Positions 16,005 through 38,349 of a stretch of DNA of 64,000 bases are shown here, piece after piece. This DNA is from Patescibacteria group bacterium (GTDB lineage Bacteria > Patescibacteriota > WWE3 > UBA101185 > UBA10185). Each line of letters opens with the position of its first letter. Position 1 is the stretch's first letter. The DNA is taken from NCBI GenBank assembly GCA_049322215.1, contig JBMORU010000001.1, positions 194,327-258,326 of the forward strand, given 5' to 3'. The position numbers were made by a program, and so were the translations under genes. Below the pieces are notes generated by a model, which saw only the letters and a list, made by a program, of their open reading frames with translations, made no database searches and had not been told where the DNA came from.

Positions 16005-16565
16005 ATGATATTATCGGACACAACTATAAAAAAATATATAGAAAGTGGCAAAATCGAAGTTAAACCGGACTTCGATTTTCAAGATATAAGCCCTGTTGGC
16101 ATAAGGGTGTATTTAGATAAAGAGATTTTAATACCAGAACCCAATCAATACGTTAACTTAAGACAACCAACAGAACTTAAATATAAAAGAATAGATATTC
16201 GTGAAAAAGGATACATATTGAAACCAGGCGAATTTGTTTTGGGAGCAACGTTTGAAAGAATACGTACCGCCAGAAATATATTAACTATGCTTGATGGAAG
16301 AAGTACAATTGCTCGTTTAGGTTTAACCACACATATTACAGCGGGAGTAATAGATGGAAAGTACGACACCCCTAAATCCATAGTGTTAGAAATAAAAAAC
16401 GTAGGTAACTTTAACTTTCATCTCAACTACAAAGACCCAATCGGAATGATATATTTTGTTAGATTAACAGAGCCCGTTGTACACCAAATAGAGGATAGAT
16501 ATAAAGCACAATCTAATGGTGGTGTAATGGCACCAAATTTATTTCACAAACCCCTAGGAAAATGA
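16005..16565 (+). CDS. dcd: dCTP deaminase
   Basis: LDGRSTIARLGLTTHITAGVIDGKY matches the Dcd/dUTPase-fold core (E. coli [25 protein letters not shown]); 186 aa. Confidence 0.8.
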   Translation: MILSDTTIKKYIESGKIEVKPDFDFQDISPVGIRVYLDKEILIPEPNQYVNLRQPTELKYKRIDIREKGYILKPGEFVLGATFERIRTARNILTMLDGRSTIARLGLTTHITAGVIDGKYDTPKSIVLEIKNVGNFNFHLNYKDPIGMIYFVRLTEPVVHQIEDRYKAQSNGGVMAPNLFHKPLGK

Positions 16566-17504: not shown

Positions 17505-17507
17505 ACG

Positions 17508-17945
17508 TTAGTTACAAACAGAAGAGTTTAAAGCCATATTCGAACATTCCCTAACCTCTCCCCAATCCGAACAATACTTTAGACCTAATCCATTAAGGGG
17601 TTTTTCTAAAAATACACGAACACAGAAAGAATTTCCATCAGAAGAGTAATCGTAGGTTGTGCCGTCTGGAACCCCCGTAGGCCATGTTTGAATATAAGGG
17701 TCTAAACTTGCAGCACTAGTATTTAGCGGATAAGTACCTTCAACAGCTCTATGAGCTTCTAGACCTGAAATAGCCTTGTTTAAATTGGCAGTTCTAACTC
17801 CATCTTGTGCAACGTCTTGCTGCGCAGAGGGACTAATAATCGCAATTAAAATGCCACTTAAGACACCTATTAAAGCAATAACAAGTAAAAGTTCTATTAA
17901 AGTAAATCCAGTGGAACGTATTTTAGGCAGATTTAATACATACAT
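17508..17945 (-). CDS. type IV pilin-like protein (prepilin-type N-terminal cleavage/methylation domain)
   Basis: Leader MYVLNLPKIRSTG then FTLIELLLVIALIGVLSGILIA, the class III signal and hydrophobic helix. Confidence 0.8.
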   Translation of the reverse strand: MYVLNLPKIRSTGFTLIELLLVIALIGVLSGILIAIISPSAQQDVAQDGVRTANLNKAISGLEAHRAVEGTYPLNTSAASLDPYIQTWPTGVPDGTTYDYSSDGNSFCVRVFLEKPLNGLGLKYCSDWGEVRECSNMALNSSVCN

Positions 17946-17993
17946 AACAGTATATATACTGTATCTGTTTAAGGTGTGTTTTTCAATAAAAGC

Positions 17994-18578
17994 CTAGTAT
18001 CCTAAATATGCAAAAATCAAATAGGTTGTAATTATTCCGTTTAAAGCTCCCAAAGCAGCTTGAAGAAAAGTATGATACTTAAGTAGGATACGACAATAAA
18101 TCATTACTACTGTTAATAAAAGACCTAAAATTCCAATAGTAGGACTAAGTAATAAAAATGTTAAAGTAGCACCTGTGGCCAAACTTGCAGTGTGCAGGCT
18201 TATTTTAGTTAATTCGTTAACTAGAGCGTTAATAGCATTAACTCCAAAAACACTAAAAACACCAAGTAGTAGTTCGGTAGGCGCGTTAAATGCGTACATA
18301 ATAGAAGCGGTTATTAAAGTGACTATAAGGCCAAACACATAAAAGTTATCTCTATTTTCTCTTATAGAAATGTTTATATCGGTAATTTGTTTTGTGAATA
18401 TAAGGTACAAAAGAAAAGATGCCACAGGAATAAGTAAAAGAGCACCAAGTACAATAACCCAAAAATAAGCCTCATATATAGAATGAGTGTATTGCACAGC
18501 TATAACTAACAAAACAGCGGGGCACACAAACAAAGGGCCAAATATTGTAGATATAATTTTTGCTAAAGTTTTACTCAT
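17994..18578 (-). CDS. hypothetical polytopic membrane protein
   Basis: 194 aa, about 6 TM helices. Confidence 0.4.
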   Translation of the reverse strand: MSKTLAKIISTIFGPLFVCPAVLLVIAVQYTHSIYEAYFWVIVLGALLLIPVASFLLYLIFTKQITDINISIRENRDNFYVFGLIVTLITASIMYAFNAPTELLLGVFSVFGVNAINALVNELTKISLHTASLATGATLTFLLLSPTIGILGLLLTVVMIYCRILLKYHTFLQAALGALNGIITTYLIFAYLGY

Positions 18579-18922
18579 TATGCAGCTTTTATTATAAGGG
18601 GAATAAACCTTGATTCAAACCTTCAACAAAGTTAAAAGTTTAAGTCAAGGCTCATAAAGAAAATATAGTTGTTTATTTAAACTATACCTTCATAGAGCCC
18701 CAACTTGATTTTAAATTTAGAAATCAAGTTAATTAAAATGTGTGTGCTATCTCAGTTTTCGCCTTCCGATCGAACTAGACACACGCGTACACACCATATT
18801 GTGCACTGAGGCATCGGAATAGCGCCTTCTTTTACTTCCTTAAAACAGAAAGCTTACATTACCTTACGGTTTTGTGTGGGGCATCAGGATAATTCCCCTT
18901 AAAGTTGAAAATTTAAAATCTT

Positions 18923-19603
18923 TTAACGGAATCGTACCAAAAACCAATCGTCGCCTTTGTATTTTTTGGTGAGGTTGGTTTCGAATACTTGGTAACTCAT
19001 CTGTTTCAATGTGCGACTATGTAGCAAAAAAGCACCTTGTGGAACCTCTACATTAGGAGCACCTTCTGTAGAAATTGCACGGTAGCTTGAGGTACCAACG
19101 TTTGCAGTTTCCAACTTGTTATTTCGTACTCGGATTTTTTTATAATTTCCAAGTTGAAGCACGAGTTGGAGACCATAACCTTCTTTGACAGCAACCACGT
19201 GGGTACGACCGTAATGACGATCTTTACCTTCAGACAAAAGCGTATTCCATCCGTATTCTATTTCCACTACTGCGTACCCTTTGGGTAAATAGCGCAAAAA
19301 CAAACCTTCTTGGTCAGCTATTTGCCATCCGTGATGCACTTTGTACGTTCGGCTAACAAAATGTCTTTCCTTCAGTTTTCCGTCGTGGTAAAAAATGGCG
19401 TCTTTGTAAACCATTTTTTCCAAACCAAGAGATTCAAGAAAAGCATTTAACTCTTCGGCATAATCAAATTTCTTGCCCGCAACAGCCATAGCACGTTCAA
19501 TGGGCAGGTGTAAATACATGCTCCCATTAAACTTACTACCATAAGGCAAATGCCATTTACGGGGGTTAAAGCGAACATTAGAAACCAAAAGTTGTTGTGA
19601 CAT
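18923..19603 (-). CDS. hypothetical protein (moderately G+C-rich ORF)
   Basis: 226 aa, soluble, no recognised motif; composition richer in G+C than neighbours. Confidence 0.45.
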   Translation of the reverse strand: MSQQLLVSNVRFNPRKWHLPYGSKFNGSMYLHLPIERAMAVAGKKFDYAEELNAFLESLGLEKMVYKDAIFYHDGKLKERHFVSRTYKVHHGWQIADQEGLFLRYLPKGYAVVEIEYGWNTLLSEGKDRHYGRTHVVAVKEGYGLQLVLQLGNYKKIRVRNNKLETANVGTSSYRAISTEGAPNVEVPQGAFLLHSRTLKQMSYQVFETNLTKKYKGDDWFLVRFR

Positions 19604-19730
19604 GCTAAAATCTCCTTTTATATAAGCATGGTTAAATTTTCAAGTGCAGGTATTATAAAATATTAGTTAAACATAGTCAATGCTATAGGGTATGTAGATA
19701 ATAATACTTAAATAGTCTAAAATCAACATA

Positions 19731-20312
19731 ATGCCCAATAAAAAAGGTTTCACACTTATAGAACTTCTTATAGTAATTAGCCTTATTGCTATGCTTACAG
19801 GTATATTAATTCAAGTAATTGATGTTCAGCAGCTTATGAAAAGAGCAAAAGATGCAGTAGTAAAAGGCACAATTATAAAATTAGCGCTAGTAGTAGAGTC
19901 AAATGTGTCATCAACAGGGCATGTGCCTATTAATGAAGGCTGCAATTGCGATATACCAAATAGTTGCGAAATGATGACACTTTTAAATAATCAAGTAGTA
20001 AACTGCCATAAAACACAAATAACGCCTGATGGAACTAAACTTTGGATGGAAGTAAAAACACTTAAAATGGGCGAAACGCTACTGGGAGGTAATATAGATT
20101 TAGATGATTCCGACGCCATAAGGTATATGGACTTTAGAGATGGCTGCTTAGCGGCAGTTTCTGAGGAAACACCCCCTTGGGTTTATGTATGGTCTCGAAG
20201 TAGAGGTTTAATGTTTTGCCACCCAGGAACGGATGTTCACCCAGGGCTTGTTACCTGCAATAACATTTTGAATGATAGTTTTGTAGCACAACGTTGCGAG
20301 TCTATAGATTAA
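19731..20312 (+). CDS. type IV pilin-like protein
   Basis: MPNKKG/FTLIELLIVISLIAMLTGILI prepilin signal; Cys-rich C-terminal domain. Confidence 0.8.
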   Translation: MPNKKGFTLIELLIVISLIAMLTGILIQVIDVQQLMKRAKDAVVKGTIIKLALVVESNVSSTGHVPINEGCNCDIPNSCEMMTLLNNQVVNCHKTQITPDGTKLWMEVKTLKMGETLLGGNIDLDDSDAIRYMDFRDGCLAAVSEETPPWVYVWSRSRGLMFCHPGTDVHPGLVTCNNILNDSFVAQRCESID

Positions 20313-20380
20313 GAAACCTCTGAGAACGGTGAACTTAATTACGGCATAATACACTATTAACCCATAGTATTTACAGGGAG

Positions 20381-20800
20381 ATGATTCCTTGTTATAATCT
20401 GCACACAAACAAAATCTACCAAAATAAGGAGTTGACCATGGCTCAAAAATTATATGAACCAGATCGTGGGGGCATTAAAAAGTTCAGAATAAAAATTGTG
20501 TGCCCTCACTGTAGTGAAGAAACCGAAATGCCAATAAGTGATCTCACTACGGGTACTGTGATTTATGCGAAACTAACCAAAACGTGCAAATGTGGTAAAT
20601 ACCAGTTCCAGCTGCAGTATCTAAATACGGGTAATGTATTAGTAATGCATCGTACTCGAACGGCAAGATTTCTACAAAAGGACGAGTATGGCAAATGGCA
20701 TCATATGTTCCTGTCACAAGGTTACAGCCAACCATACAGTCCAGACCTGACAAAAACGTACCGATACAAATCAATCGAATACCAATACGTCAGAAAATAA
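20381..20800 (+). CDS. hypothetical zinc-ribbon protein
   Basis: CPHC...CKCGKY pattern; probable true start MAQKLYEP at about 20438. Confidence 0.4.
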   Translation: MIPCYNLHTNKIYQNKELTMAQKLYEPDRGGIKKFRIKIVCPHCSEETEMPISDLTTGTVIYAKLTKTCKCGKYQFQLQYLNTGNVLVMHRTRTARFLQKDEYGKWHHMFLSQGYSQPYSPDLTKTYRYKSIEYQYVRK

Positions 20801-20860
20801 CCTTTAAGGGTATTTACTTTTAGAACTCAACATTCTTCAAGTAAATGCCCTTTTTTTTCT

Positions 20861-23800
20861 TTAAAAGGAAACTTGCGTAACTTCAAGACCGTCTGCCCAT
20901 AAAGTACCAGACCCATTTAGGCTTAATGAAACCCTCATGTATGTGGCATCTGTTGGAGCTTTACCCTCTACCAATGCTTTTACCCATGGTTGTTTTAGCT
21001 GTGCTGAAGATACGGTTGTTTCAAATCTTCCTAAATATGTTGATCCTGATAAACCCCCGTAATAACTCATAGTTAGTACTGCACCATTTGTGATTTCTTG
21101 TCCTTTAAGCCACATTGATAGTGCATAAGTTTGATTTTGTTCTACGGGTATATATTTTCTTATGCTTGTCCAGCTTCCATAGTATCTGCTATCCGTAACG
21201 GTCGTTTTTAAAGAGTAATTGCCTGTATAAGATTGATCGTTTGCCCATGAAAATGTGGCACTTCTACCGCTTGTACTGAAATCTTTGGTTGGGTCTGTTT
21301 CAAAACTTGTGCCAAATACTATGCTTGTAGCTGTTGCAGTTGATGTATTTGTTGATGAAGCAGGCTGCGGCGTTTCTATGGGTTGTTCAGGAACTGTAGG
21401 ATTAGTCGTTACTGTATCTACGTTATCGGTATTTTGCGAAATGGGATCAAATACCGAGGGGGTGTCATTAGTATTAGTGGAAAAATCAACGCTGTTTGAA
21501 GAATTAGCGAATGCAGAATTAGTTACCTCTAAGTAATCCATATTAGGACCCCCAACACTATGTGTTGCAGACAATCTAACTGTGTTAAAACCATTATTTA
21601 AAGAAACCATGCGCTCAAGGGTTCCCCAGTCTTCCCAAGTAGAACCAGTACCAGTGAAGTTAATATTTTCTAAAATGACGCCATTTATAATCAAATCTAA
21701 AGGGCGTCCATTGTTTGGACCCATCCAGGAACTATCTGAATCAAGGGCATAGCCAAAACTTAGTAAGTAATCACCTGCTGTTGGTGCGGAAACCGTCCAT
21801 TCTACGTAACTTCCCTTTCCATCAGGATAATCGCTGTAATCAATAAAACCGTTACCACTGTACCCAGCTTGATTACTTGCCACATTAGTTGTACCTCCAC
21901 CGGCATTGTCTCCAAAAGCAGCTTCTTCTGCCTCATATTTATTACTTGTAGATGTTAAGGGGTTTAGAGTCAAATAGTCTACGTTAGGACCCCCAATTAA
22001 ATCAGTAGCTTCTACTCTTATTGTATTTAGTCCAGAAGTTAGCGATATTGATTTAGTTACTGTTCCCCAGGTTTCCCACGATCCTGTACTTGTGTAAGCT
22101 ACGTTTTCCACTACATTTCCATTTACTATTAAATCCATATTTCTACTATTACGAGATAAGGCATATATTACATCTACGCTATAAGTACCTGCTGTAGAAG
22201 AATTATAAGTCCACTCTACATATCCACCTTTTCCATTAGGACTGTTACTCATATCTACGAAACCGTCTCCGCTGTATCCAGCATGGTTAGTTGCGACTTT
22301 TGTAGTGCCTAAACCTATAGCATCTCCAAAGTTGGCGTTTTCGGCCTCAAGTTTGTTGCTACCACCTGAAGGCGGTGGAGGTGGGGGTGGTACAGGACAT
22401 GCCCCACAATCTGCTGAACAGGTAGAACAAGTTTCATTGCCATTACACTGGTTATCACCGCATGAAGGTGCCGGTGGATCCGGGGGCATAATAGAAACAG
22501 TAGTTACTTTTAAGTAATCTACATTGGGTCCCCCATAAGTGCCTGCAGCAACTAACCTAACGGTAACTTCGCCAGCTGGTAAGTCAACTTCAGCACCAAG
22601 TTCTTTCCAAGTTGTCCATGAACCAGTGCTTGTAAACGATATAGCACCAAGATTTTTTCCGTTCACAATTAAATCCATTGGTCTGTCACCAGATATACCG
22701 TTTGAAAGGGCATACCCAAAATCAAGTGCATATTTGCCTTCATCTATCACATTAAACTTCCACTCAATAAAACCATCGGCACCATTTGGAAAGTCACTTA
22801 AGTCAACAAAACCTGTGCCGCTATAACCAGAATGTACGGTATCTACCTGAGAAGTACCAAGCGAGGTGTCGCCAAATACAGCATCTTCAGCTTCAAGCAA
22901 CATAGTATCTCCGGAAGGTGGTGGTGGCGAAGGGCATTGTCCGCAATCTGCAGAACAAAGCGAGCATGATTCAGTGCTACTACACACCCCATCTCCACAG
23001 CTAGGTGCAGGATCAGGAGGAGGAGAGGTTGAATCTTCCATACAAAAAGAACATAAACTTGCAGGAGCAGTTACCAAAGCAGGGCCGCTCACAGTAAGAT
23101 TTTCTTCCTGAGAACCGTTACAAATAGCCACTGGACTTGAAGTAATAATGTCATCAATACTTACATTATCTTCATAAGAATTATTTAAAAGATAAACCTC
23201 AGTAGAGTTCTCGTCCACCCTAACTACGGGCTTAGCTGCGCTACCGACAGAATTAATAAATTTATTTTGACACCACGTAACATTTTTAGGTGAATGGTAT
23301 ATTCTATAAGTTCTAGTGGCATAGGTGCCAATATTGTCTTCTAGCTTATTGTGATGAACATAAACATTTGTTGCATCAGGAAACTTTGATCCATCAGTGC
23401 GATAAATATAGTTACCAGCAGTTTCTCCAACGTTAGCGTGCGAATCAACCCCTAAACCAGTTAAATCATGTAAGTCATTTGAATAAATAGAATAACTTTC
23501 TGTATATAGTTGCCCAGGAAGTAAATTGCCTGTATCTGAATTATTTAAGGCTTGGTTTAAACACCCATTGTTATCTGCACCATCAGTAATAGAACAATCT
23601 TTAGAACCTACTCCATGAGATGCATTATGCGCCTCATTGTATCGAACTGTTATGTTTTTAGCATATCTAAAGTGAATTGCAGAGTCTCCGTCAGAGTTTT
23701 TGGCTTCTACTCTCTCGACAAGGGCATTATCGGAATACCAAATATTTATAAGTAAGCCTTTTGTGCTAGAACCATCTACAGTTAAATCACGCAAAATTAG

Positions 23801-24442
23801 ATTTTTTTTGTGCTTAAAACGTACAACATCGTTTGTGTAGCCACTTCTTTTCAATATAGTTTTACCAACACCAGCGCCTTGTAAAATAATATTGTTTGGT
23901 AATTCAAGTTTGGCAGTGATAGTTATTGTACAGGCGGGCAAATTAACTGTACCGCCATCTGAACCCAAACTATCTAATAAACTCTGTAAAGCAGAATATG
24001 TACAAGTATCGAGGCTATACACTTTATTACCTACAGCTGCGTTAAACTGATCCCATTTAAAACCGCGTTCAGGAAACTTTAACTTGCGACAAACGTTTGG
24101 AGATGATGATAAGTCAAGATAACTACCTTCGGAGCATGGGTTACTACCCACACCCGATGACATAGATGCTAAAACAGAAGCGTTTTCAGAAGAATCACTT
24201 TCTTTTGTTTGTTTTAGTAAAGACGAAATTTTATAGGAGTAATCAGAAACAGTACCATTAAAATAATATAAAAACCCACCAACTACAGCTAAAACTACAA
24301 CAGCTAATAACACATGAGTAAAGCCTTGGTCTTTTTTATGATCACGTTGCTCAAATGTATTCACGTAAAAAGTGTAACAATCTTTACAATTTGGTGTCAA
24401 TGAATTACATAGATAGTTATCTATTAAACCTTTGGTGGACAT
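20861..24442 (-). CDS. large membrane-anchored surface protein: right-handed beta-helix (pectate-lyase-like) domain, three CBM6/CBM35-like repeats and a C-terminal CBM4_9-like domain, joined by Cys/Pro-rich linkers
   Basis: 1193 aa; N-terminal TM (VLLAVVVLAVVGGFLYY); NxxDGxxxxL-like beta-helix repeats; three about 130-aa repeats each ending GGPNVDYL; linkers PPDPAPSCGDGVCS...CSADCGQCPSPPPPS occur twice. Confidence 0.7.
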   Translation of the reverse strand: MSTKGLIDNYLCNSLTPNCKDCYTFYVNTFEQRDHKKDQGFTHVLLAVVVLAVVGGFLYYFNGTVSDYSYKISSLLKQTKESDSSENASVLASMSSGVGSNPCSEGSYLDLSSSPNVCRKLKFPERGFKWDQFNAAVGNKVYSLDTCTYSALQSLLDSLGSDGGTVNLPACTITITAKLELPNNIILQGAGVGKTILKRSGYTNDVVRFKHKKNLILRDLTVDGSSTKGLLINIWYSDNALVERVEAKNSDGDSAIHFRYAKNITVRYNEAHNASHGVGSKDCSITDGADNNGCLNQALNNSDTGNLLPGQLYTESYSIYSNDLHDLTGLGVDSHANVGETAGNYIYRTDGSKFPDATNVYVHHNKLEDNIGTYATRTYRIYHSPKNVTWCQNKFINSVGSAAKPVVRVDENSTEVYLLNNSYEDNVSIDDIITSSPVAICNGSQEENLTVSGPALVTAPASLCSFCMEDSTSPPPDPAPSCGDGVCSSTESCSLCSADCGQCPSPPPPSGDTMLLEAEDAVFGDTSLGTSQVDTVHSGYSGTGFVDLSDFPNGADGFIEWKFNVIDEGKYALDFGYALSNGISGDRPMDLIVNGKNLGAISFTSTGSWTTWKELGAEVDLPAGEVTVRLVAAGTYGGPNVDYLKVTTVSIMPPDPPAPSCGDNQCNGNETCSTCSADCGACPVPPPPPPPSGGSNKLEAENANFGDAIGLGTTKVATNHAGYSGDGFVDMSNSPNGKGGYVEWTYNSSTAGTYSVDVIYALSRNSRNMDLIVNGNVVENVAYTSTGSWETWGTVTKSISLTSGLNTIRVEATDLIGGPNVDYLTLNPLTSTSNKYEAEEAAFGDNAGGGTTNVASNQAGYSGNGFIDYSDYPDGKGSYVEWTVSAPTAGDYLLSFGYALDSDSSWMGPNNGRPLDLIINGVILENINFTGTGSTWEDWGTLERMVSLNNGFNTVRLSATHSVGGPNMDYLEVTNSAFANSSNSVDFSTNTNDTPSVFDPISQNTDNVDTVTTNPTVPEQPIETPQPASSTNTSTATATSIVFGTSFETDPTKDFSTSGRSATFSWANDQSYTGNYSLKTTVTDSRYYGSWTSIRKYIPVEQNQTYALSMWLKGQEITNGAVLTMSYYGGLSGSTYLGRFETTVSSAQLKQPWVKALVEGKAPTDATYMRVSLSLNGSGTLWADGLEVTQVSF
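21540..23060 (-). repeat. three tandem diverged about 400-450-nt intragenic repeats (CBM-like modules) separated by two near-duplicate Cys/Pro-rich linker segments
   Basis: Protein-level repeat ...AE.A.FGD..G.GTT.V.T..AGYSG.GF.D......G...EW......G.Y......YA...LVNG........TG.W.....GGPNVDYL three times; linker DNA around 22370-22490 and 22900-23060 is similar. Boundaries approximate. Confidence 0.5.
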
Positions 24443-24822
24443 AGACTTTAATACTTGGAACCGCTTTGTTGAATGGGTTTTTGAAGGGGGGCCACAAGTA
24501 CCTGCACTAGCAACGGCATGACAGCAACAATAAATGATAGCGATTAACTAGCACCAACGTGTAATAGAACCACAGGGGTTAAGCACACTGAAAGTTAAAT
24601 AAAAAAGATAAAAAAGGGGTATTTAGTAAAGGTTGTTTTTTTCGAATTTTGAAAAAAGTCACTTCGCAATATTTCAATAGACTACAAACTTGATAATGTA
24701 GGCATACTCAGCACCCATAGATATCAACTGATTATTGATATATAATCCATTACAAACACGGTTGGGTGTTTTATTTCCTATCAGAGTAGACAAATAGTTA
24801 GAAACAAGGAAGGTGAGACTCA

Positions 24823-24984
24823 ATGGATGAAAAAGGTTTTGTTGTACCAGCAGCAACGGCTTATCAAAATCTAGGCAACAGGAGAGTTTCGACAAACCGC
24901 AAAACTTGCAATAAGTGCCAAGGGCCATGTGCGTGTAATTGCAAACGTGCCCCAAACACCACCAACGCAACACTGGTTCGTTAA
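24823..24984 (+). CDS. unlisted 53-aa Cys-rich small ORF, candidate RiPP precursor (SCIFF/ranthipeptide-like): MDEKGFVVPAATAYQNLGNRRVSTNRKTCNKCQGPCACNCKRAPNTTNATLVR
   Basis: ATG 24823 preceded by GGAAGGTGAG (RBS-like); TAA at 24982; five Cys clustered C-x2-C-x3-C-x-C-x-C in the C-terminal third; lies 112 nt upstream of a radical SAM/SPASM gene on the same strand. Confidence 0.55.
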   Translation: MDEKGFVVPAATAYQNLGNRRVSTNRKTCNKCQGPCACNCKRAPNTTNATLVR

Positions 24985-25096
24985 CCCAACGTCGTTGTCC
25001 TTCAAGGGGTTACCTAAGATACTGCCAACCCAGTTTCTGAAAGTAATCCCTCTAGCACTTTTATGTTCAAATAGTATGTAACCCAGGAGAGTAGCA

Positions 25097-26395
25097 ATGA
25101 TAAAACTATCCAAATACACACATGTTATTCCTATTAATAGCGCTACCTTTGCACTTTGGAATAGCTTATGGCTTAGAGTCATTTTCGTTAACGAAAGTAC
25201 ACTCGAAGCAATTAGGACAGGAGACCCCCTAGGAATTCACCCTGCCCTATTACAGGCACTCAATGACAACAACTTCATCGCAGATGATGAAAGAGATCAA
25301 GCGAAGTTAATGGAAGTAAGAAGATCTCTGCCACATCAATCCATTGGACTGATGTATTTGATCGTCACAGAAGGGTGCAATTTTGGCTGCGGGTACTGCT
25401 TTCTAAAAGACATGGTATGTAACGACCACGCCATTGAATCAATGATGACCTTTGAAATTGCAAAGAAGGCAATTGATCTGTTCAAAAAAACAATAGAAGC
25501 ATCAGGAGCCATCGAAGAACCAATGATCATCTTTTACGGTGGTGAACCCTTGCTAAACTGGGAGGTTATTCACCAAGCACTGATATACGCCCGCGAGCAG
25601 ATTCCAAACATTTCATTCACGCTAAACACCAACGGGAGCCTGATAACACATGAAATTGCAATGGTGCTTAAAGAGATGCAGGTGGGAGTGGCACTTTCTA
25701 TCGATGGAAAAAACCACGATGTTTACAGAGTTAATCGAGGTGGAGAAGGAACTCTTGCCCAGGTACTTGCAGGACTCAAGATACTCCAAGAGCATGGATG
25801 TGCAGTTGGTATCTCTTGCACAGTGACCGACGCAAATCTTGAAACACTGGTTGATGATTTCCTATGGATGATCGATGATCTAGGTGCAGACTCAGTTGAC
25901 TTCAATGTACTACTCGGCAAGGAACCAGACGAGCATTACAAAGAAAGAGCTACTGCACAGATTTTGAAGTGTTATCAAATTGGATTAGAAAAGGGAGTGC
26001 CTGTAGAACGTGTAATGCGTACCATTGAACCGATTATAGAAGGTAGGCTTTGCCTAGCTGATTGCGGTGGTTGTGGACAGCAAATAGTATGTGCTCCAGA
26101 TGGTCAATTAGGTAGCTGCCATGCATTCTTAAACGACAGGTCTTTTTTCTTTCAATTTGAAGATGTTCCAAACCCAGATCAACATGAGCTTTGGTTGGAG
26201 TGGAAAACTAGATCGCCATTCAATATACCCGAATGCCTGGATTGCCCAGCATTAGGTGTTTGTGGAGGAGGATGTTTTTACAATTCATATCTCCGAGATG
26301 GAAGTGTGTGGACTGTAGACAAAGTGAACTGCACATTTGTAACAACTATCCTTCAAACAGCTTTAAAAGATATGTGGGAAAGCATGCAACCATAG
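25097..26395 (+). CDS. radical SAM/SPASM-domain peptide-modifying enzyme (SCIFF/ranthipeptide-maturase-like) with N-terminal RRE-like extension
   Basis: CNFGCGYC (Cx3Cx2C) radical SAM cluster; C-terminal CLADCGGCGQQIVCAPDGQLGSC and CLDCPALGVCGGGC (Cx2Cx5Cx3C) SPASM auxiliary-cluster motifs; about 85 aa precede the rSAM core. Confidence 0.85.
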   Translation: MIKLSKYTHVIPINSATFALWNSLWLRVIFVNESTLEAIRTGDPLGIHPALLQALNDNNFIADDERDQAKLMEVRRSLPHQSIGLMYLIVTEGCNFGCGYCFLKDMVCNDHAIESMMTFEIAKKAIDLFKKTIEASGAIEEPMIIFYGGEPLLNWEVIHQALIYAREQIPNISFTLNTNGSLITHEIAMVLKEMQVGVALSIDGKNHDVYRVNRGGEGTLAQVLAGLKILQEHGCAVGISCTVTDANLETLVDDFLWMIDDLGADSVDFNVLLGKEPDEHYKERATAQILKCYQIGLEKGVPVERVMRTIEPIIEGRLCLADCGGCGQQIVCAPDGQLGSCHAFLNDRSFFFQFEDVPNPDQHELWLEWKTRSPFNIPECLDCPALGVCGGGCFYNSYLRDGSVWTVDKVNCTFVTTILQTALKDMWESMQP

Positions 26396-26450
26396 AGTTC
26401 GGAGGGTTTTTGTTAAGCAAACGCTTGATAAAAACTCTCCCTTTTTTGTT

Positions 26451-27182
26451 TTAGGAGCGTACTTTTTCTAAAGTTAAAGAAACAAAATCTTTAATCCCTT
26501 TCGCATCAACATACTCAGATTTAATTGCCAATTTAACTTTCTCCAATTGAGGGTAGTTCTTTAGGTATTGGTCATAACCTTGAGTCTTTTTTGACCACAA
26601 GTCTTTAAAATCAGGATCTAAACCCAACACAGCATTGGTAACTAGCTCATTAAGAGCCCAATACTCAAATACTGGGTTTTCTTCAGAATCAGGAAATAAC
26701 TCCCAAATTACATGCCACATGTGATGCATTAGTAGTTCGTGAGCTGTAATGCGTAATTGATCCTTTGAATCTTCCAAAGCGGATCTAACTACGGTGTCTC
26801 CACACATATTGCTGACCCCTTTGTTTAAAGGACTGATAACCACCTTATATTCTTTGTGAGTCCATTTGTGGCTTGTTAACTCTGTAGTTTTTTCAAAAAA
26901 ATGGTCATTTATTTTGTCCCACTCTTGTTGGTAACCCTTTAAAGCACTAGATATTTGAGCGGAGTGTTTTGCATGCTGCTCTTCTAAAAAGTTAGTTGCC
27001 CATTCCTCAATTTCTTCAAATGCTTCCGCTTGAACAAATTTATCAGCATCCTTTTTTTGAATGCCCATAGAGTCAAGACGGCTTTCTAAACCTGCAGGAT
27101 CTTCCATGTTTAACATATTCCAGGTTGTCATAGCATCATAGTTTGTATCTACAATAAATTTTACTTTTGTCATTGCTAACAT
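26451..27182 (-). CDS. hypothetical protein (convergent with the rSAM gene)
   Basis: 243 aa, His-rich segment TAHELLMHHMWH, no canonical HExxH; function unknown. Confidence 0.45.
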   Translation of the reverse strand: MLAMTKVKFIVDTNYDAMTTWNMLNMEDPAGLESRLDSMGIQKKDADKFVQAEAFEEIEEWATNFLEEQHAKHSAQISSALKGYQQEWDKINDHFFEKTTELTSHKWTHKEYKVVISPLNKGVSNMCGDTVVRSALEDSKDQLRITAHELLMHHMWHVIWELFPDSEENPVFEYWALNELVTNAVLGLDPDFKDLWSKKTQGYDQYLKNYPQLEKVKLAIKSEYVDAKGIKDFVSLTLEKVRS

Positions 27183-27326
27183 TATAGCTTTCTATACACA
27201 AAAATGTATATTCTTCTGAAGTATCATGCTAACCATAACGGCTAACAAAAGCAGACAACCTATAAAAGAGTGACCTCGCGTCTTTCAGTAAACGTTTAAC
27301 TGAGTTTTAGTTGTTGTAACAACCCT

Positions 27327-27732
27327 TGGTGGAGATGAGGAGAATCGAACTCCTGTGTTGAAAGTAAAAACATTCAAGTGTACAAGCTTAGCTGGCCATT
27401 AAATTCAAAAAGACAGGTTGCCAACACACCCTAAACCTTTTCTAGACTTCAGCTAATAAAAGCCTTTACACTTTTTGCGTGTTTGGAGGTTAAGTCAGTC
27501 ACGCTTAACTACCGCATCCCGGTTAGTTTTGACCCAATAATCCATTCCGGGCAAAAGATTAAAGGATCTTCACCTTAAGTTAAAACTTAGGCAAATGCTC
27601 CAACCATTGCTGGTTGAGCTACTAGTACATCTTCGTCTGCACTTATTAACGGCTAGCATTTTTACGAACTTACTAGCAATTTCGGCTTGCTTGCAATGCT
27701 TTAACACTTACAGTCAAAGCCATTACATCCCC
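27327..27732 (-). ncRNA. ssrA: tmRNA (ssrA), about 406 nt
   Basis: 5' GGGGATGTAATGGCTTTGAC... and 3' ...CAGGAGTTCGATTCTCCTCATCTCCACCA form a tRNA-Ala-like acceptor with a G3-U70 wobble and encoded CCA; T-arm-like GGAGTTCGATTCTCC; sits 40 nt downstream of smpB; candidate tag ORF GCAGACGAAGATGTACTAGTAGCTCAACCAGCAATGGTTGGAGCATTTGCCTAA (ADEDVLVAQPAMVGAFA*). Confidence 0.8.
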
Positions 27733-27771: not shown

Positions 27772-28233
27772 TTAGTAAACGTATTTACGCGAATCTTTTG
27801 CAGCTTTATCTAGCTCTTTTTTAACTTGACGTTCTTGTGCCACAATCTTTTTTTCGTGTTTTTTACGTCCTTTTACTATTGCGAATTCTAATTTTATCAG
27901 ATTATGTTTTAATAATAAAGCCAATGGAACCGCCGTTTTTCCTTTTTGACTCAACTCTCTTTGCAGTTTTTGTAATTCGTTTTTGGTTATTAAAATTTTT
28001 CTGCTTTTTCTAGAATCATTTTCATCGTAATTTTGACTTTGCTTTGAATACTTGCCAATATGCATATTCACCACATAGGGTTCGTTTTGTATTAAAGTTA
28101 TATAAGATCCGGTCATATTAACTTTACCTTCTTTAATAGCTTTAACCTCATAACCACGTAAAATAATCCCTGCCATAAATTTTTCAAGGATTTCGTGATT
28201 AAATGTAGCTTTTCTGTTTTTTGCTAATAACAT
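27772..28233 (-). CDS. smpB: SsrA-binding protein SmpB
   Basis: 153 aa; sequence (EILEKFMAGIILRGYEVKAIKEGKVNMTGSYI...KLEFAIVKGRKKHEKK) and C-terminal basic tail fit SmpB. Confidence 0.9.
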   Translation of the reverse strand: MLLAKNRKATFNHEILEKFMAGIILRGYEVKAIKEGKVNMTGSYITLIQNEPYVVNMHIGKYSKQSQNYDENDSRKSRKILITKNELQKLQRELSQKGKTAVPLALLLKHNLIKLEFAIVKGRKKHEKKIVAQERQVKKELDKAAKDSRKYVY

Positions 28234-28271
28234 AACGTTGAGAGTCTACAAAAAAGTAAGAATATAAGCAA

Positions 28272-30080
28272 TTATTCTGCTGTATTTTCTTCTTCTACCA
28301 AGGCAGTTTCGTATACTTTACTGCCACTTAATACATAAAGTTTAGTTTCATCTATAGAAACACCTATGCTTTTAATATCATTCCATAAAGGGGACTCTAA
28401 AACTCTTTCGGTAGCGCCATTTTTATTTAAAACAACAATACGATTATTGCCTTTATCTGCAATATACAAACTGTTTAAATCAACATTAGTAACAACTTGT
28501 ACAGGATTTGAAAAAGAAGTGTCTAAACCGGTTATTTCAAAAGTATCTTGAGCACCTTGTGTATAACTTAATAAAGAACCATCATTTTTTAAAACATAAA
28601 TGCTGCCGTCTATAGCCATTGACACAGCATTTTCTAAGTCACTGTCATTAGCCCATACTTCTGAGCTTAAGGTATCTGTTTCTTTTGTGTATTTTGTTAT
28701 TGTAGATCCCGAAATTCCATAAACAAATTCTAAATAAGTAGCAGCTAGTTCTAAGTTAGGTGCAGAGTAACTTTCGTTAACCGAATCAGCAGTTATGTCA
28801 TAAACTTTAAAACCTTCAGTATCTATTAAAGCTAAGTTTTCATCATAAAAACCTAACAAATTTATTCCTACAAAAGATGAATCGTTTTTAGCAAATTTAG
28901 GTGTTTCTAAAGCAGAAAAATATACTGCCCCCGTATTAGAATCAGCTACAACCACGTTATTTTCTAAAACAGCTATAGAAGTTGGCTCGGCAAAAGAGTC
29001 TGTAATTTTCACGTCGTAAAATAATTCGGTTATTTCATCAGAAACTAGCTGATCATCAACTGTGGTCTCCCCTGAGTTTTCAGCAGGGGCTAGACTAGCA
29101 GGATCTATAAAAGATGAGTTATTTGTAGCGTCATTTGATGCAGAATCATCGTTTAAAGACATGTAAGCCGAAACGCCTAACATTAAAGCTAGTACCGGAA
29201 TTAGCAAAATAAGCAAGTTTTTAAACTTGCGCGGTCTTTTAGATATAGGGGAATAATTAATGCCTCCAATTGGTGGAAAAGAAGATAAGTCGGCACTACT
29301 GGTATTTTGCTCTGGCAAAGGGTTTAACTCTTTTTTTGCAACTTTGCTTTTAAACCACTTTAACTTAGGCAGTTTAAACCTGGATTTTGAAGGTTTTACT
29401 ACCTCAGGATCAGCAGATGCACCAAAGTCTACCAATTCTTCATTAGAAAATTTAGTGTCAACAACAAATTTAAGTATTAAGGCTGCGGAATCTAAGGATA
29501 AATCTCCAGATAAAATTGGTTTATCTAAATTTAATAGCTTTTCAGGAGGATACTTAGTTACAAAAGCATTAGTTCCAATTACAGCTACATCATTGTCTTT
29601 TATTACACCCGAAGCTACAGAAAAATTACCCTCAGAGGCAACATTAATAGGCTTAATAGCACCATCTCTAACTAAAAAGCTACCACCATTACCATACTGA
29701 ACTAAGTATAAAACATTTCCCCAAAGTGCGGCTAACAAAATATTAAAGTTAAGGGGGATTTCTTGAGTTTTTGAAGATTCTCTTATTAAACGAGTTATAT
29801 TATCTCTTACAGCTACCGTGGCTTTTTCTAAAGACTGAATAGGTGAAATATTTTCGGAATGAAAATAGGTATCATGTAAAACATCATTAACCATTTTGGT
29901 AACCAACAGCGAATCTACCTCTAGTTCGCTACTAATATCAAACAGGGCATATAAAGTACCTTTTCTTTTAGCCAAAGTTGCATCGTCTGCTTCAATAACT
30001 AAAACATTAGAGGCAGTAGTTGTTTGAGGAGGCATTTTAGAAGTAAGTTTTTGTATTTTTGCTTTTAAACGCTTTTTCAT
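28272..30080 (-). CDS. hypothetical bitopic membrane protein: N-terminal cytoplasmic domain, one TM, C-terminal beta-propeller-like (NHL-type repeats) domain
   Basis: TM LLILLIPVLALMLGVSAYMSL at about aa 290; C-terminal repeats (LYIADKGNNRIVVLNKNG, IYVLKNDGSLLSY). Confidence 0.45.
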   Translation of the reverse strand: MKKRLKAKIQKLTSKMPPQTTTASNVLVIEADDATLAKRKGTLYALFDISSELEVDSLLVTKMVNDVLHDTYFHSENISPIQSLEKATVAVRDNITRLIRESSKTQEIPLNFNILLAALWGNVLYLVQYGNGGSFLVRDGAIKPINVASEGNFSVASGVIKDNDVAVIGTNAFVTKYPPEKLLNLDKPILSGDLSLDSAALILKFVVDTKFSNEELVDFGASADPEVVKPSKSRFKLPKLKWFKSKVAKKELNPLPEQNTSSADLSSFPPIGGINYSPISKRPRKFKNLLILLIPVLALMLGVSAYMSLNDDSASNDATNNSSFIDPASLAPAENSGETTVDDQLVSDEITELFYDVKITDSFAEPTSIAVLENNVVVADSNTGAVYFSALETPKFAKNDSSFVGINLLGFYDENLALIDTEGFKVYDITADSVNESYSAPNLELAATYLEFVYGISGSTITKYTKETDTLSSEVWANDSDLENAVSMAIDGSIYVLKNDGSLLSYTQGAQDTFEITGLDTSFSNPVQVVTNVDLNSLYIADKGNNRIVVLNKNGATERVLESPLWNDIKSIGVSIDETKLYVLSGSKVYETALVEEENTAE

Positions 30081-30310
30081 ATAAGTAACGTTAGGGCAAT
30101 AAGTAAAACAACGATAGCTCCAAGAAAATGTATATAAGCAGCTAATCTAAAAAAACCGCCGGCATTAGTTGTAAAGCTCTTTATCATGTTTGACACCTGA
30201 CGAGTCATTAAAAAAGCATAAAAAGCGTAAAAGGAACAAAGTATTATCATTAATACGCCAAATACTTTTGTTAACAATTCTCCCGTAACTAAAGTGGTTA
30301 AATCAATCAT
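30077..30310 (-). CDS. small hypothetical membrane protein
   Basis: 77 aa, two TM helices; overlaps neighbours by 4 and 8 nt, consistent with an operon. Confidence 0.3.
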   Translation of the reverse strand: MIDLTTLVTGELLTKVFGVLMIILCSFYAFYAFLMTRQVSNMIKSFTTNAGGFFRLAAYIHFLGAIVVLLIALTLLI

Positions 30311-30902
30311 TTTCTGGGCTAATTCGCAAATTTGATACTAGATCGGATATAACATCTTGTACACGTGAAGGGTCAGGCACTGCAATAAAATCAAACTCGC
30401 GGGTTTCACCCGCAGTTTGAATAATAACATCGCCATAGTGAAAAATTACTTGAGCTGCTCCACTAATTCTATTAGTTATGTCTTCAATATTCCTAATTGG
30501 TGCCTCAGATACGTTTCTATATAAAATTCCGTGGAAATCTACATCTATAATTTTTTTGTTGGTTACAATGTAAACGTTGTAGTACCAACCTAAAATATTT
30601 GTCAAAATAAAGCCAAAAGTAAACAAGTACCAAAAAGCTGTTATAGAAAAACCAACACGCGGAGAAATATAAACGTAAGGGTCTATTTTAGTCATTGCAA
30701 ATAAAACACTTAAAAGAACGGGAATTAGCAAAATAATGAATAATAAAAAAACCCAACCCAGGTTTGTAATTAAATGCTTTCTCAGAAGTAAAATAATCTG
30801 TTCGTCGGAGTCTTCACCATCAAAACAAATATTTGTAGGCTTTTCAATATATGAATACCCTTTCATGCCGATATTATAGCGAAATAGCGTGATTTTTTCC
30901 AC
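30303..30902 (-). CDS. membrane-flanked bacterial PH-domain (bPH_2/DUF304-like) protein
   Basis: Two TM helices (WVFLLFIILLIPVLLSVLFAM; FWYLFTFGFILTNILGWYY) followed by an about 90-aa soluble domain. Confidence 0.4.
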   Translation of the reverse strand: MEKITLFRYNIGMKGYSYIEKPTNICFDGEDSDEQIILLLRKHLITNLGWVFLLFIILLIPVLLSVLFAMTKIDPYVYISPRVGFSITAFWYLFTFGFILTNILGWYYNVYIVTNKKIIDVDFHGILYRNVSEAPIRNIEDITNRISGAAQVIFHYGDVIIQTAGETREFDFIAVPDPSRVQDVISDLVSNLRISPEND

Positions 30903-32118
30903 TTAATAATAAATAAGAAAAGAATATAGAAGTAAATAAAATTGAAAATGTTGGTAGCGCCATCCAAAACACTGCAAACATATAAATAAATAAAAACAGA
31001 AGCGTAGTTTTATTAAACTTTATGAGAGACGAAAAACTTGGTTTAGTGGAAGGCAAATAATTAAGTTTAAGCAGTAGTAAACTAGGAAACAACCATAACA
31101 TTAAGTCATAAGAATAAGCGTGTAGAGAAAGTAATAGTGTAAACACTGACGCAATCACAAATAATTCTTCTATATTTAGCTTTTTTCTACTAATCCAAAC
31201 CATTAAGTACACCAATAACACCAATACACTATTTAGAATAAATACATAATTTTTGTTGCCTAATAGTAAATTTAGAGAATGTTGCAATGTCACCAAAGAA
31301 GCAGGCTTACTATAGTAAATAATCTCTTCTGTTAAAAATATGTAATGCGGGTAATATAAAACAGCGTCTAGCCCAGACATGTATACACTTATCAAAAACA
31401 ATACAACACAGGACATAAAAAAACCAAAAGCAAAATGTAATTTCTTTGAAGTGTATAAAAAAATAAAAGGTACAAATATTACATATTGAGGTTTTATTAA
31501 AAGAAGTGCTGCGAAAGCACCACTCACTACTATATGATCCTTTTTTAAAAACAAATAAGTTAGAAATAGGCTAAAAACCATAAACATAGATACTTGCCCG
31601 CCAAACAACATTTGTGTAAACGGGATATACGAAAAACAAAGAAATAAAATAAAGAAAAAGTGATTTCCTTTAAAGAGAAAACTAGAAACCAAATAAGCAA
31701 AAATTATTAACAAGATTATGTTAAAAATTAAAAAAGCATAATAACTACTGTAGTAATTTGTTCCAATAAAGGGTATATAAATTAAACTTACAAAAGGAAG
31801 ACTTCTATAAGGCAAAACACCACTTCTTATTAAGGGAAAGGTAAGCTTATTTTGATAATTTAACTGAGTATTAAGATCATAAAGCAAACTGCCTTCTCCA
31901 GAGTTAATAATTTGTGCTCCTGATAAAAACTGGCCTAGGTCGGAAGCTTCGATAAAAAACGAGTGATGATAATAGCGATAAATTAACACTAAGGCAGACA
32001 ACAACGAAACAGAAATAATAAACAAAAAAATATAAGGAAAACGATTTTCAAGTTTTTTAAATGAAATTAAGTTGTTTACCATAAGTCTTTCCAAATATCT
32101 CATAAAAGAAGTCGACAT
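30874..32118 (-). CDS. polytopic membrane protein, possible GT-C-fold glycosyltransferase (DUF2029/GT87-like)
   Basis: 414 aa, at least 10 TM helices, Tyr/Phe-rich loops; family assignment tentative. Confidence 0.35.
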   Translation of the reverse strand: MSTSFMRYLERLMVNNLISFKKLENRFPYIFLFIISVSLLSALVLIYRYYHHSFFIEASDLGQFLSGAQIINSGEGSLLYDLNTQLNYQNKLTFPLIRSGVLPYRSLPFVSLIYIPFIGTNYYSSYYAFLIFNIILLIIFAYLVSSFLFKGNHFFFILFLCFSYIPFTQMLFGGQVSMFMVFSLFLTYLFLKKDHIVVSGAFAALLLIKPQYVIFVPFIFLYTSKKLHFAFGFFMSCVVLFLISVYMSGLDAVLYYPHYIFLTEEIIYYSKPASLVTLQHSLNLLLGNKNYVFILNSVLVLLVYLMVWISRKKLNIEELFVIASVFTLLLSLHAYSYDLMLWLFPSLLLLKLNYLPSTKPSFSSLIKFNKTTLLFLFIYMFAVFWMALPTFSILFTSIFFSYLLLSGKNHAISL

Positions 32119-32148
32119 GTAAAGAAAACAAGTATATATTTTGCTGTA

Positions 32149-33564
32149 ATGGTGGGAAATAAACTGAATGCATATATTAAAAATTATCTATATTTAGATT
32201 TGAGATCATTAGCCCTAGCACGCATAGGTATCGGGTTTATAATAATTTTTGACCTAGCAATAAGATATAGACAACTAGAGGATCACTATACAATAAACGG
32301 AGTAATGCCTAATTCAGTAAGACTAAAGGCATTAGCTAATCCATTATTTTCAATACATAATTTAAACGAGTCTGCTGCTTTTCAAACAATTCTTTTTATA
32401 GCAGCGGGTTTAGTAGCGTTTACTTTATTAGTAGGGTTTAAAACCAAAATTAGCACAATTGTATCTTGGCTACTTTTAGTGTCGCTGCAAAATAGAAATG
32501 AGCTAATTTTATTTGGTGGCGACATGCTTTTAGCAATGACCCTATTTTGGGGAATGTTTTTGCCCTGGGGAAAAAAGTTTTCTGTAGATGCTCTTAAAAA
32601 TAAAACTTCCGAAACAAAATATGTAGGAATTGCAGGCATCGGATTTATTCTGCAGGTGAGCTATTTATATATTTTATCTGCAATTTTTAAAACAAATGAA
32701 ATGTGGACTACCGAGGGAAGTGCTACCTACTACGCTTTAACCTCAAGAACGCCTCAAAAACCATGGGTAAATTTACTAATACCTCATGCGGATATTCTCC
32801 AAATAGCAACTTATTTAATATACGTTTTAGAACTAGTGGGGCCATTTTTTATATTTTTACCCATATTTAAAGATAAACTAAGATTTGCAGTAGTTAGTAG
32901 TTTAATTGCCCTACATGTTGGTTTAATATCATTCATGTTTTTATTATTCTTTCCTATTTTAAATATTACTGTGTTAATGGCATTGTTGCCTTCTATAGTT
33001 TGGAAACAAAAACCAGATACTAACAACTTTGTGCAAGACCAAAAATGGAAAAACATACTAGCATTTGCGTTTATAGCATTTTTTTATTATCTAAACTTAA
33101 ATTCGTTTAACAGTGCGTTAGCACCGAAACCACAAATAATAGCACAAGTAGAAAGAAACTTTAGACTAAGACAAAAATGGGTTATGTATGCAAGACCCCC
33201 ACATAGAAGCGAATGGGTTGTAGTTAAAGGTAAGACACAACAAGGCAATGATGTAGATTTAAAACAAGGTACTTTAGCAAATATTGACTACAGCAGACCA
33301 AAATATAGCTTTACACTTATACCTCAAAGAGGTTGGGTAAAATTTGAAGAAGTTTTAAAAAGAGACTTGTACCCCGGACAAATGGATTTATATACAAGAT
33401 TTTGGTGTGAGAAATGGAATAAAAACAATGAAGATAAAATTGAAACATTAGAGTTAATAAATGTTTATCAGGAATACGACGCCGCAACACAAAGTAATAG
33501 CGAAATAAAACAGGAGTTGCTAAAAACTACCGAGTGTAGTTTTAATACTTCTTTACAAGGATGA
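32149..33564 (+). CDS. HTTM-domain protein (vitamin K-dependent gamma-carboxylase-like fold)
   Basis: N-terminal LDLRSLALARIGIGFIIIFDLAIRY matches the signature opening of HTTM domains; about 8 TM helices then a soluble C-terminal domain. Confidence 0.6.
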   Translation: MVGNKLNAYIKNYLYLDLRSLALARIGIGFIIIFDLAIRYRQLEDHYTINGVMPNSVRLKALANPLFSIHNLNESAAFQTILFIAAGLVAFTLLVGFKTKISTIVSWLLLVSLQNRNELILFGGDMLLAMTLFWGMFLPWGKKFSVDALKNKTSETKYVGIAGIGFILQVSYLYILSAIFKTNEMWTTEGSATYYALTSRTPQKPWVNLLIPHADILQIATYLIYVLELVGPFFIFLPIFKDKLRFAVVSSLIALHVGLISFMFLLFFPILNITVLMALLPSIVWKQKPDTNNFVQDQKWKNILAFAFIAFFYYLNLNSFNSALAPKPQIIAQVERNFRLRQKWVMYARPPHRSEWVVVKGKTQQGNDVDLKQGTLANIDYSRPKYSFTLIPQRGWVKFEEVLKRDLYPGQMDLYTRFWCEKWNKNNEDKIETLELINVYQEYDAATQSNSEIKQELLKTTECSFNTSLQG

Positions 33565-37165: not shown

Positions 37166-37185
37166 AATAAAAGGAGGTGTAAAAA

Positions 37186-38333: not shown

Positions 38334-38349
38334 ACTTCTCAAGTAATAA

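Follow-up and report, generated by a model that had tools for sequence, protein, structure and literature searches.

Cysteine (Cys)-rich peptides made by ribosomes and modified after translation (RiPPs) that are matured by radical S-adenosylmethionine (SAM) enzymes with SPASM domains include the SCIFF peptides and ranthipeptides, such as thermocellin with its maturase CteB and freyrasin with its maturase PapB. In these systems, a Cys-rich precursor is encoded directly 5′ of a radical SAM/SPASM maturase of approximately 430-450 amino acids (aa). The target of the FibroRumin maturase (TIGR04136; precursor model TIGR04135) is likewise a Cys-rich RiPP. Zincin-type proteins of RiPP clusters comprise leader metallopeptidases as well as the HExxH-containing alpha-ketoglutarate-dependent hydroxylases ChlH, PflC, and BpmH (PMC12636437). 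Genes for transfer RNA (tRNA) and transfer-messenger RNA (tmRNA) are the usual targets of tyrosine-integrase islands (Islander definition, PMC4383910). Here, we describe a cassette of three genes, for a Cys-rich precursor, a maturase of the radical SAM/SPASM type, and a 243-aa zincin-fold protein, which is located on the 3′ side of the tmRNA gene ssrA in a stretch of 64,000 nucleotides (nt) from a Patescibacteria group bacterium (contig JBMORU010000001.1). This whole stretch is referred to as the window.

The cassette is a new member of the radical SAM/SPASM Cys-rich RiPP kind, with a zincin-fold partner that has no family assignment. We favor, with moderate confidence, the reading that this module was acquired horizontally and lies within a composite, integrase-free accessory block at a hotspot flanking the tmRNA gene. 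A preliminary description of this DNA had pointed to a small Cys-rich open reading frame (ORF) next to a radical SAM/SPASM gene and had placed the ssrA 3′ end at position 27327. Both genes were confirmed (Table 1), as was the ssrA end, by ARAGORN and Rfam.

Radical SAM/SPASM Maturase

The maturase contains a CX3CX2C cluster motif, C94-x3-C98-x2-C101 (CNFGCGYC), which aligns with the motifs of its closest solved structures, 8vpo and CteB (5wgg, E 2.7e-26). The cysteines C380-x2-C383-x5-C389-x3-C393 and C412 align with the SPASM cysteines of CteB and also with 8vpo; the Pfam SPASM model PF13186 did not reach an E-value of 0.01 on this protein. The best NCBIfam match was the FibroRumin maturase TIGR04136 (212.1 bits, cutoff 400), followed by PapB (NF047865; 139.6 bits, cutoff 340) and SCIFF (TIGR03974; 126.5 bits, cutoff 425). 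In the best 25 of the 75 NCBIfam matches, the maturase scored below the cutoff.

The locus thus resembles the SCIFF/ranthipeptide systems in its gene arrangement and in the matches of the PapB and SCIFF models to the maturase (1e-40 and 1e-36, respectively), whereas its scores are far under both equivalog cutoffs. It also differs from these systems in its precursor, with its Val-Pro leader, CxxCxGPCACNC core, and C-terminal (Q/L)VR, for which none of the precursor models gave a match, and in its partner, a zincin-fold protein without a Pfam or NCBIfam family. The likeness to the FibroRumin system consists of the Cys-rich target and of an end-to-end match of the maturase, with residues 5-426 aligned to positions 2-453 of the 458-position profile. 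In contrast, the maturase score is little more than half of the TIGR04136 cutoff, the precursor of the window does not match TIGR04135, and the best TIGR04135 match among the precursors of the relatives has an E-value of 1.7 and 8.7 bits against a cutoff of 45. The name FibroRumin was not found in the literature searched.

Precursor Peptide

The precursor, MDEKGFVVPAATAYQNLGNRRVSTNRKTCNKCQGPCACNCKRAPNTTNATLVR, consists of a leader with a Val-Pro motif, a core CxxCxGPCACNC with five Cys residues, and a C-terminal LVR. Homologous small ORFs were found directly 5′ of every radical SAM homologue examined, yielding 11 distinct precursor sequences. In the alignment of these sequences, P9, C29, C32, C36, and C38 are conserved in at least 90%, and C40 is invariant. 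The precursor had no match among the Pfam and NCBIfam models, including the NCBIfam precursor models.

The core GPCACNC is present in the precursors of four loci, the maturases of which are 60% (L002), 53% (L003), 48% (L008), and 39% (L028) identical to that of the window. A locus from a metagenome-assembled genome (MAG) of Chloroflexi (L004, maturase identity 44%) has the core SVCICKAC, and a locus from WWE3 (L007, 36%) has a Cys-rich core. In L039, L048, L050, and L062, with maturase identities of 29-31%, the core is of the CxCxC type.

Zincin-Fold Partner Protein

The 243-aa protein has the fold of a zincin catalytic domain. Its invariant residues are H148-E149-x4-H154, within the segment RITAHELLMxH, and N178-E179. 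The motif is therefore H-E-x4-H instead of HExxH, with an invariant Met at position 152 in the place of the second His of HExxH. From the sequence, N178-E179 could provide the third metal ligand. This invariant N-E pair, approximately 24 residues after H-E-x4-H, resembles the LNEG third-ligand motif of the M1 peptidases. No match to Pfam or NCBIfam was found for the protein at E <= 0.01, and a search of PDB sequences with the profile of this family returned only noise.

The family is very rare, with seven clusters in 5.8 billion proteins. In a metagenome scan, 47 loci with relatives of the 243-aa protein were found. In approximately half of the loci with enough flanking sequence, a radical SAM homologue and a CxCxC precursor adjoin the gene, either convergently or co-directionally. 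Because the family is often solitary, its members are recurrent but facultative partners of the radical SAM and precursor genes. Both the H-E-x4-H motif and this occurrence without a radical SAM neighbor distinguish the family from the leader metallopeptidases and from ChlH, PflC, and BpmH. Candidate roles of the 243-aa protein are those of a peptidase for the leader or of a tailoring enzyme.

In 7 of the 41 non-redundant loci, the homologue of this protein is encoded no more than 300 bp from a tRNA or tmRNA gene, as compared with 20 of the 261 other ORFs of these loci (Fisher p = 0.055). The seven loci are L023, L027, L029, L030, L064, L067, and the window itself; in six of the seven, the homologue lies 3′ of the RNA gene. 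A tie of the family to the 3′ ends of these RNA genes is thus suggestive, not established. In one of these loci (L067), the 3′-terminal 21 nt of a tRNA-Gly gene (5016-5090) are repeated exactly at 5265-5285, 175 nt downstream and just before the gene of the 243-aa family, in the manner of an att-like duplication or scar.

Proposed Maturation Pathway

By analogy with the known systems, the maturase would bind the conserved leader of the precursor via the Val-Pro motif. Its SAM cluster and the pair of auxiliary SPASM clusters would then serve to cross-link the five conserved Cys residues in the core. These cross-links would most likely be thioethers, as in the SCIFF peptides and ranthipeptides processed by CteB and PapB. 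The 243-aa protein might subsequently remove the leader or tailor the peptide; alternatively, it might carry out an oxidation of the alpha-ketoglutarate/HExxH type (PMC12636437).

Distribution of the Cassette

The precursor, maturase, and 243-aa genes were found together in a convergent arrangement in L002 (identities of 60% for the maturase and 55% for the 243-aa protein), L003 (53% and 43%), and L028. They are co-directional in L038-42, L048, L050, and L062. The maturase family is rare and patchy; its closest member is only 60% identical, and members at the lower identities given above come from lineages as different as Chloroflexi and WWE3. The neighbors of the module differ at every locus. 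The flanking genes of L002 share nothing with the window, and no shared gene was found in the flanks of L023 either, so no empty site can be defined from these two loci. None of the cassette loci elsewhere adjoins a tmRNA gene. No relative of the maturase or of the 243-aa protein was found on the viral contigs of IMG/VR, and carriage of these genes by phages or other viruses was rejected on this ground.

Two of the related cassettes contain a second radical SAM gene, located at 1667-2701 in L008, where it overlaps the end of the first maturase gene, and at 12221-13291 in L007. A second enzyme of this kind suggests that the peptide family includes versions with heavier modification.

Gene Content Downstream of ssrA

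The ssrA gene of the window encodes its CCA end and the tag ADEDVLVAQPAMVGAFA. The gene for the 243-aa protein begins 144-153 nt from the ssrA 3′ end, depending on whether its start is placed at 27182 or 27173, so that the cassette adjoins the 3′ side of an intact tmRNA gene, as is required of a tRNA/tmRNA island.

The nearest relatives of the host SmpB protein are 63-66% identical. A search of genome contigs with SmpB yielded one true relative (L009) and no close representative of the host lineage. A contig of 13.8 kb (L070) is collinear with positions 7.5-32.8 kb of the window. Its gene order is a 191-aa protein, DUF5657, a 591-aa protein, smpB, ssrA, yggT, a 73-aa protein, a 169-aa protein, an M16 peptidase, a phosphoribosyltransferase, tRNA-Ser(gct), a 193-aa protein, tRNA-Arg(gcg), and onward. 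In L070, 89 bp separate the ssrA 3′ end from the yggT stop codon, versus 9.8 kb in the window (27327 and 17504, respectively).

The DNA specific to the window therefore extends over the whole interval between ssrA and yggT, and the boundaries 24443-27326 given in the preliminary description were not upheld. Starting from yggT, this block encodes a pilin-like protein of 145 aa (-), proteins of 194 aa (-) and 226 aa (-), a pilin-like protein of 193 aa (+), a protein of 139 aa (+), the 1193-aa CBM6/35 protein (-), and then the three-gene RiPP module. The block is thus composed of two pilin-like genes, three ORFans, the CBM gene, and the RiPP module, which forms its ssrA-proximal third.

The comparison of synteny, proposed earlier as a check, was extended to five relatives. 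Downstream of ssrA, a 311-aa gene and an ABC transporter were found in L072, a GT87 glycosyltransferase followed by a phosphoribosyltransferase in L071 and L009, and small ORFs with tRNA genes in L005. Together with L070, these five relatives have four different gene contents directly 3′ of ssrA. The cassette is absent from this position in all five, and no homologue of any block gene was found in the loci of the relatives. In an alignment of the six ssrA loci, similarity ends at the CCA end. In these genomes, the DNA 3′ of ssrA is a hotspot at which gene content turns over, and the block therefore probably arose through several insertions or replacements and not through a single site-specific integration. 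Most parsimoniously over the five genomes, the block is a gain in the lineage of the window.

Other differences in gene order were observed around the block. The ABC transporter at 13540-15411 (53% identical to its homologue in L072) and a dCTP-deaminase-like gene at 16005-16565 are extra relative to L070, interrupting a gene order that is otherwise collinear. Upstream of smpB, the window, L070, and L072 encode DUF5657 and a 560-600-aa NHL-repeat protein. In L005, L006, L071, and L009, smpB directly follows a 445-477-aa gene and a cluster of type IV secretion system (T4SS)-pilin and SpoIID genes; in the window, the T4SS-pilin/SpoIID cluster (34968-43610) is located 7-15 kb from smpB in inverted order. 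This arrangement (27772-43610) is consistent with a large inversion, one breakpoint of which would lie immediately upstream of smpB.

Base Composition and Origin of the Cassette

The window has a G+C content of 34.7%, with a standard deviation (SD) of 3.3% among 1-kb windows. The reference for G+C at the third codon positions (GC3) of its genes is a mean of 0.252 with an SD of 0.061. The G+C content is 39.7% over 24443-27326, 42.8% over the stretch of the precursor and maturase genes (24823-26395), and 42.3%, or approximately +2.3 SD, in the 1-kb windows of the maturase gene. Values for individual genes are 45.7% with a GC3 of 0.377 (approximately +2 SD; +2.1) for the precursor and 42.3% with a GC3 of 0.373 (approximately +2 SD; +2.0) for the maturase. 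The 243-aa gene, which is the one abutting ssrA, has 36.2% and a GC3 of +1.1 SD. The earlier impression of a G+C-rich islet in the mid-40s, between flanks of 30-33%, was thus correct only in part. The bump is real, but the mid-40s are reached only by the 162-nt precursor gene and the bump is not unique in the window; the stated flank values agree with the smpB side (30-34%) but not with the CBM gene (39.4%) or the pilin-like genes (37.5-37.9%).

The CBM gene, with G+C peaks of 43-47%, has a GC3 of 0.254 (0.0 SD) and a G+C content at second codon positions (GC2) of 0.474 (+2.5 SD). Its excess is confined to the second positions and hence reflects amino-acid composition, the third positions being host-like. 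The excess of the precursor and maturase genes is found at synonymous third positions, so amino-acid composition does not explain it.

These data bear on the possibility that the cassette is native and vertically inherited, its G+C content resulting from amino acids or codon selection, its adjacency to ssrA being coincidental, and the region having been lost by the relatives. The CBM gene demonstrates that elevated G+C can be purely compositional at this locus, the 243-aa gene is nearly host-like, homologues of the module occur in other low-G+C contigs similar to those of the candidate phyla radiation (CPR), and the relatives are distant and heavily rearranged. Nevertheless, we consider vertical inheritance unlikely, given the third-position excess, the surroundings of the module, for which no other locus shows synteny, and the absence of the cassette from this site in all five relatives. 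The composition of the homologues also argues against it. Over 12 loci, the GC3 of the maturase gene tracks that of the host only weakly (slope 0.25). It is above that of low-G+C hosts, by +2.1 SD in the window, +2.2 in L003, +2.0 in L039, and +1.4 in L050, and below that of the Chloroflexi host (-1.6 SD). Such weak tracking is the pattern expected of genes exchanged between hosts of differing composition, albeit in a small sample.

An assembly chimera, in which a G+C-rich stretch of another organism was joined to the MAG by mis-assembly, is highly improbable. The origin of the sequence from a MAG is compatible with such an artifact, as is a 2856-bp contig from a second sequencing run (L074, Logan ERR15087771) with an identical smpB that breaks off 56 nt past smpB, just inside the start of ssrA. 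However, an independent Logan assembly (L001) reproduces 21.3 kb of the window as an exact substring that spans every junction, which excludes a chimera. Moreover, the genes are located on a 1.11-Mb contig in NCBI, and host-like genes (GC3 z-scores of approximately 0) flank and separate the GC3-rich ones. The end of the L074 contig at ssrA may also reflect low coverage or strain-level variation downstream of this gene.

Several observations weigh against a horizontally acquired module. The compositional signal of the cassette is modest (+2 SD) and common to other genes of the window. Thus, 1-kb G+C highs were also found at 6001-7000 (44.5%) and 22001-23000 (43.4%), and further GC3 outliers at 6089-7012 (+2.8), 10031-10402 (+3.9), 18923-19603 (+1.8), and 20381-20800 (+2.5). 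Tetranucleotide usage normalized for G+C, another check proposed earlier, does not set the cassette apart; its deviation is only approximately -2 SD, a value equalled or surpassed elsewhere, and the ABC-transporter region (13.5-16.5 kb) deviates more. The apparent regression of GC3 to about 0.4 could be a gene-intrinsic constraint. The remaining loci of the 243-aa family, including the closest homologue (L023, 68%), are solitary and lack a radical SAM gene, and the 243-aa gene may belong to the resident genome instead of travelling with a mobile unit. The 17505-27326 block contains neither an exporter nor an immunity gene. Finally, the relatives are distant, so the direction of the change, gain or loss, rests on parsimony over five genomes.

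Two of these compositional outliers stand out. The ORF at 6089-7012 (-), the G+C maximum of the window, encodes 307 aa without a Pfam family and has a G+C content of 46.0% and a GC3 of 0.42. The strongest compositional outlier in the window is a 123-aa ORFan at 10031-10402 (-), with a G+C content of 46% and a GC3 of 0.488 (+3.9 SD). It lies downstream of tRNA-Arg(gcg) (10515-10590, -), 113 nt from the 3′ end of this gene, and its slot in the collinear L070 is occupied by an unrelated 189-aa gene. This ORFan represents a second and cleaner example of a gene of foreign appearance flanking the 3′ end of a tRNA gene (tDNA).

Search for Traces of Integration into ssrA

A classical tmRNA-targeting island would have arisen from an integrase element that inserted into the ssrA 3′ end and later lost its integrase and its distal att repeat. 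Consistent with such an origin, the block starts no more than approximately 150 nt away from the ssrA 3′ end, the collinear L070 lacks it, and several of its genes have an elevated GC3. In addition, tyrosine integrases usually target tRNA and tmRNA genes (PMC4383910), and the 243-aa family is found near these RNA genes, mostly on their 3′ side, although this association reaches only p = 0.055.

In the preliminary description, no integrase or att repeat had been visible, and the Pfam tables and repeat searches likewise revealed none. No gene within approximately 10 kb on either side matched a Pfam family of integrases, recombinases, or transposases, and an integrase gene would not fit into the intergenic gaps of 380 and 144 nt. 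The last 50-94 nt of ssrA were searched against the whole window by blastn-short, exact k-mers, and Smith-Waterman tiles, and no copy beyond chance was found. The longest exact match was 11 nt (E about 1), and the best alignment of the last 50 nt scored 23, with the inverted-orientation control reaching up to 24. A degenerate copy, for which a search at about 24.4-24.7 kb had been proposed, was not found: the tiles at 24.3-24.9 kb, as well as those at 17.1-18.0 kb, score at the mean of the window. One candidate copy, 20047-20065 against 27359-27377 (16 of 19 positions), was rejected; it is located within a pilin-like ORF, omits the 3′ terminus, and is no better than the control. The block has no terminal repeats. 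At its 17.5-kb junction, the stop codons of the convergent yggT and pilin-like genes are 3 nt apart, leaving no room for an att remnant.

In the order of the block, the GC3 z-scores of its genes are -0.3, -0.6, +1.8, +0.5, +2.5, 0.0, +2.1, +2.0, and +1.1. Host-like genes are thus interspersed among GC3-rich ones, and the composition is mosaic. Such a mosaic is more readily explained by stepwise accretion than by a single decayed island. Like the islands integrated into tRNA and tmRNA genes, the locus has accessory DNA directly 3′ of ssrA that is absent there in the relatives and includes atypical genes. Unlike them, it lacks the two defining features, a tyrosine integrase and a displaced ssrA fragment at the far end (PMC4383910). 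Its mosaic composition and the differing content in the relatives point to a recombination hotspot rather than to one integrative element. Moreover, no cassette locus elsewhere adjoins a tmRNA gene, and no relative was found on viral contigs. A classical island appears distinctly improbable here, somewhat less probable than vertical inheritance. The earlier suggestion of a decayed island is therefore retained insofar as accessory, probably foreign DNA flanks the ssrA 3′ end; the unit, however, is larger (9.8 kb) and composite and shows none of the hallmarks of site-specific integration. Acquisition of the RiPP module within an accessory block built up in steps remains the reading that we prefer.

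Features of the ssrA-yggT Region

The hairpin between the maturase and 243-aa genes (Table 1) matches a terminator pattern and is likely a terminator shared by these two convergent genes. The region upstream of the precursor was examined for ORFs, and no Cys-rich or otherwise convincing ORF was found there.

Table 1. Features of the window in and around the ssrA-yggT block.
Feature	Position	Strand	Evidence or remark
yggT	16869-17504	+	Pfam YGGT; 58% identical to yggT of L070; conserved gene bounding the far side of the block
ssrA-yggT block, window-specific, 9.8 kb	17505-27326	none	Comparison with L070
CBM6/CBM35 protein, secreted/surface-type, 1193 aa, three modules	20861-24442	-	Pfam CBM_6 (8.4e-22) and CBM_35
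Intergenic region upstream of precursor, 380 nt	24443-24822	+	Sequence reading
Promoter-like site, TAGATA-17-TATAAT	24718-24746	+	Promoter scan, consensus match only
Ribosome-binding site of precursor, GGAAGGTGA, strong	24808-24816	+	6 nt 5′ of ATG
RiPP precursor, 53 aa	24823-24984	+	Small-ORF homologues upstream of radical SAM homologues
Radical SAM/SPASM maturase, 432 aa	25097-26395	+	Pfam Radical_SAM (PF04055), 3.8e-20
Hairpin, 18-bp stem and T-run	26401-26440	none	Terminator scan, pattern match
Zincin-fold protein, 243 aa	26451-27182	-	Start M4 at 27173 probable
ssrA (tmRNA)	27327-27732	-	ARAGORN and Rfam RF00023, 110.8 bits, model positions 1-374; full length, not truncated
smpB	27772-28233	-	Pfam SmpB (2.3e-40) and NCBIfam equivalogs above cutoff

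Outside this region, the longest-ORF call at 10675-11340 (-) overlaps tRNA-Ser(gct) at 11285-11370. The true start of this ORF is probably 11268, where the homology to the L070 and L009 proteins begins.

Biological Implications

The finding of this RiPP cassette does not overturn current understanding. For RiPP chemists, the precursor family is a compact three-gene target with five conserved Cys residues and, in its closest members, a GPCACNC core. For genome annotation, the turnover at the ssrA 3′ flank without an integrase or att signature is a caution against calling islands by tDNA adjacency and G+C content alone.

A more far-reaching interpretation is speculative, and we attach a low probability to it. 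The precursor with its Val-Pro leader and CxCxC core, the sub-threshold maturase, and the H-E-x4-H protein might together define an uncharacterized class of RiPPs that has its own pattern of cross-links and an unusual metalloenzyme as partner, circulating among Patescibacteria, Chloroflexi, and other uncultured lineages, and the zincin-fold gene, with or without the RiPP genes, might tend to land at the 3′ flanks of tRNA and tmRNA genes without an integrase. If true, this would point to an integrase-independent route for loading accessory genes beside tDNAs in the reduced genomes of the CPR.

Patescibacteria have tiny genomes with few biosynthetic clusters and, as episymbionts, depend on cell-cell interactions. 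The presence of a peptide-modification module, likely acquired, amid genes for surface and pilin-like proteins points to a role in such interactions.

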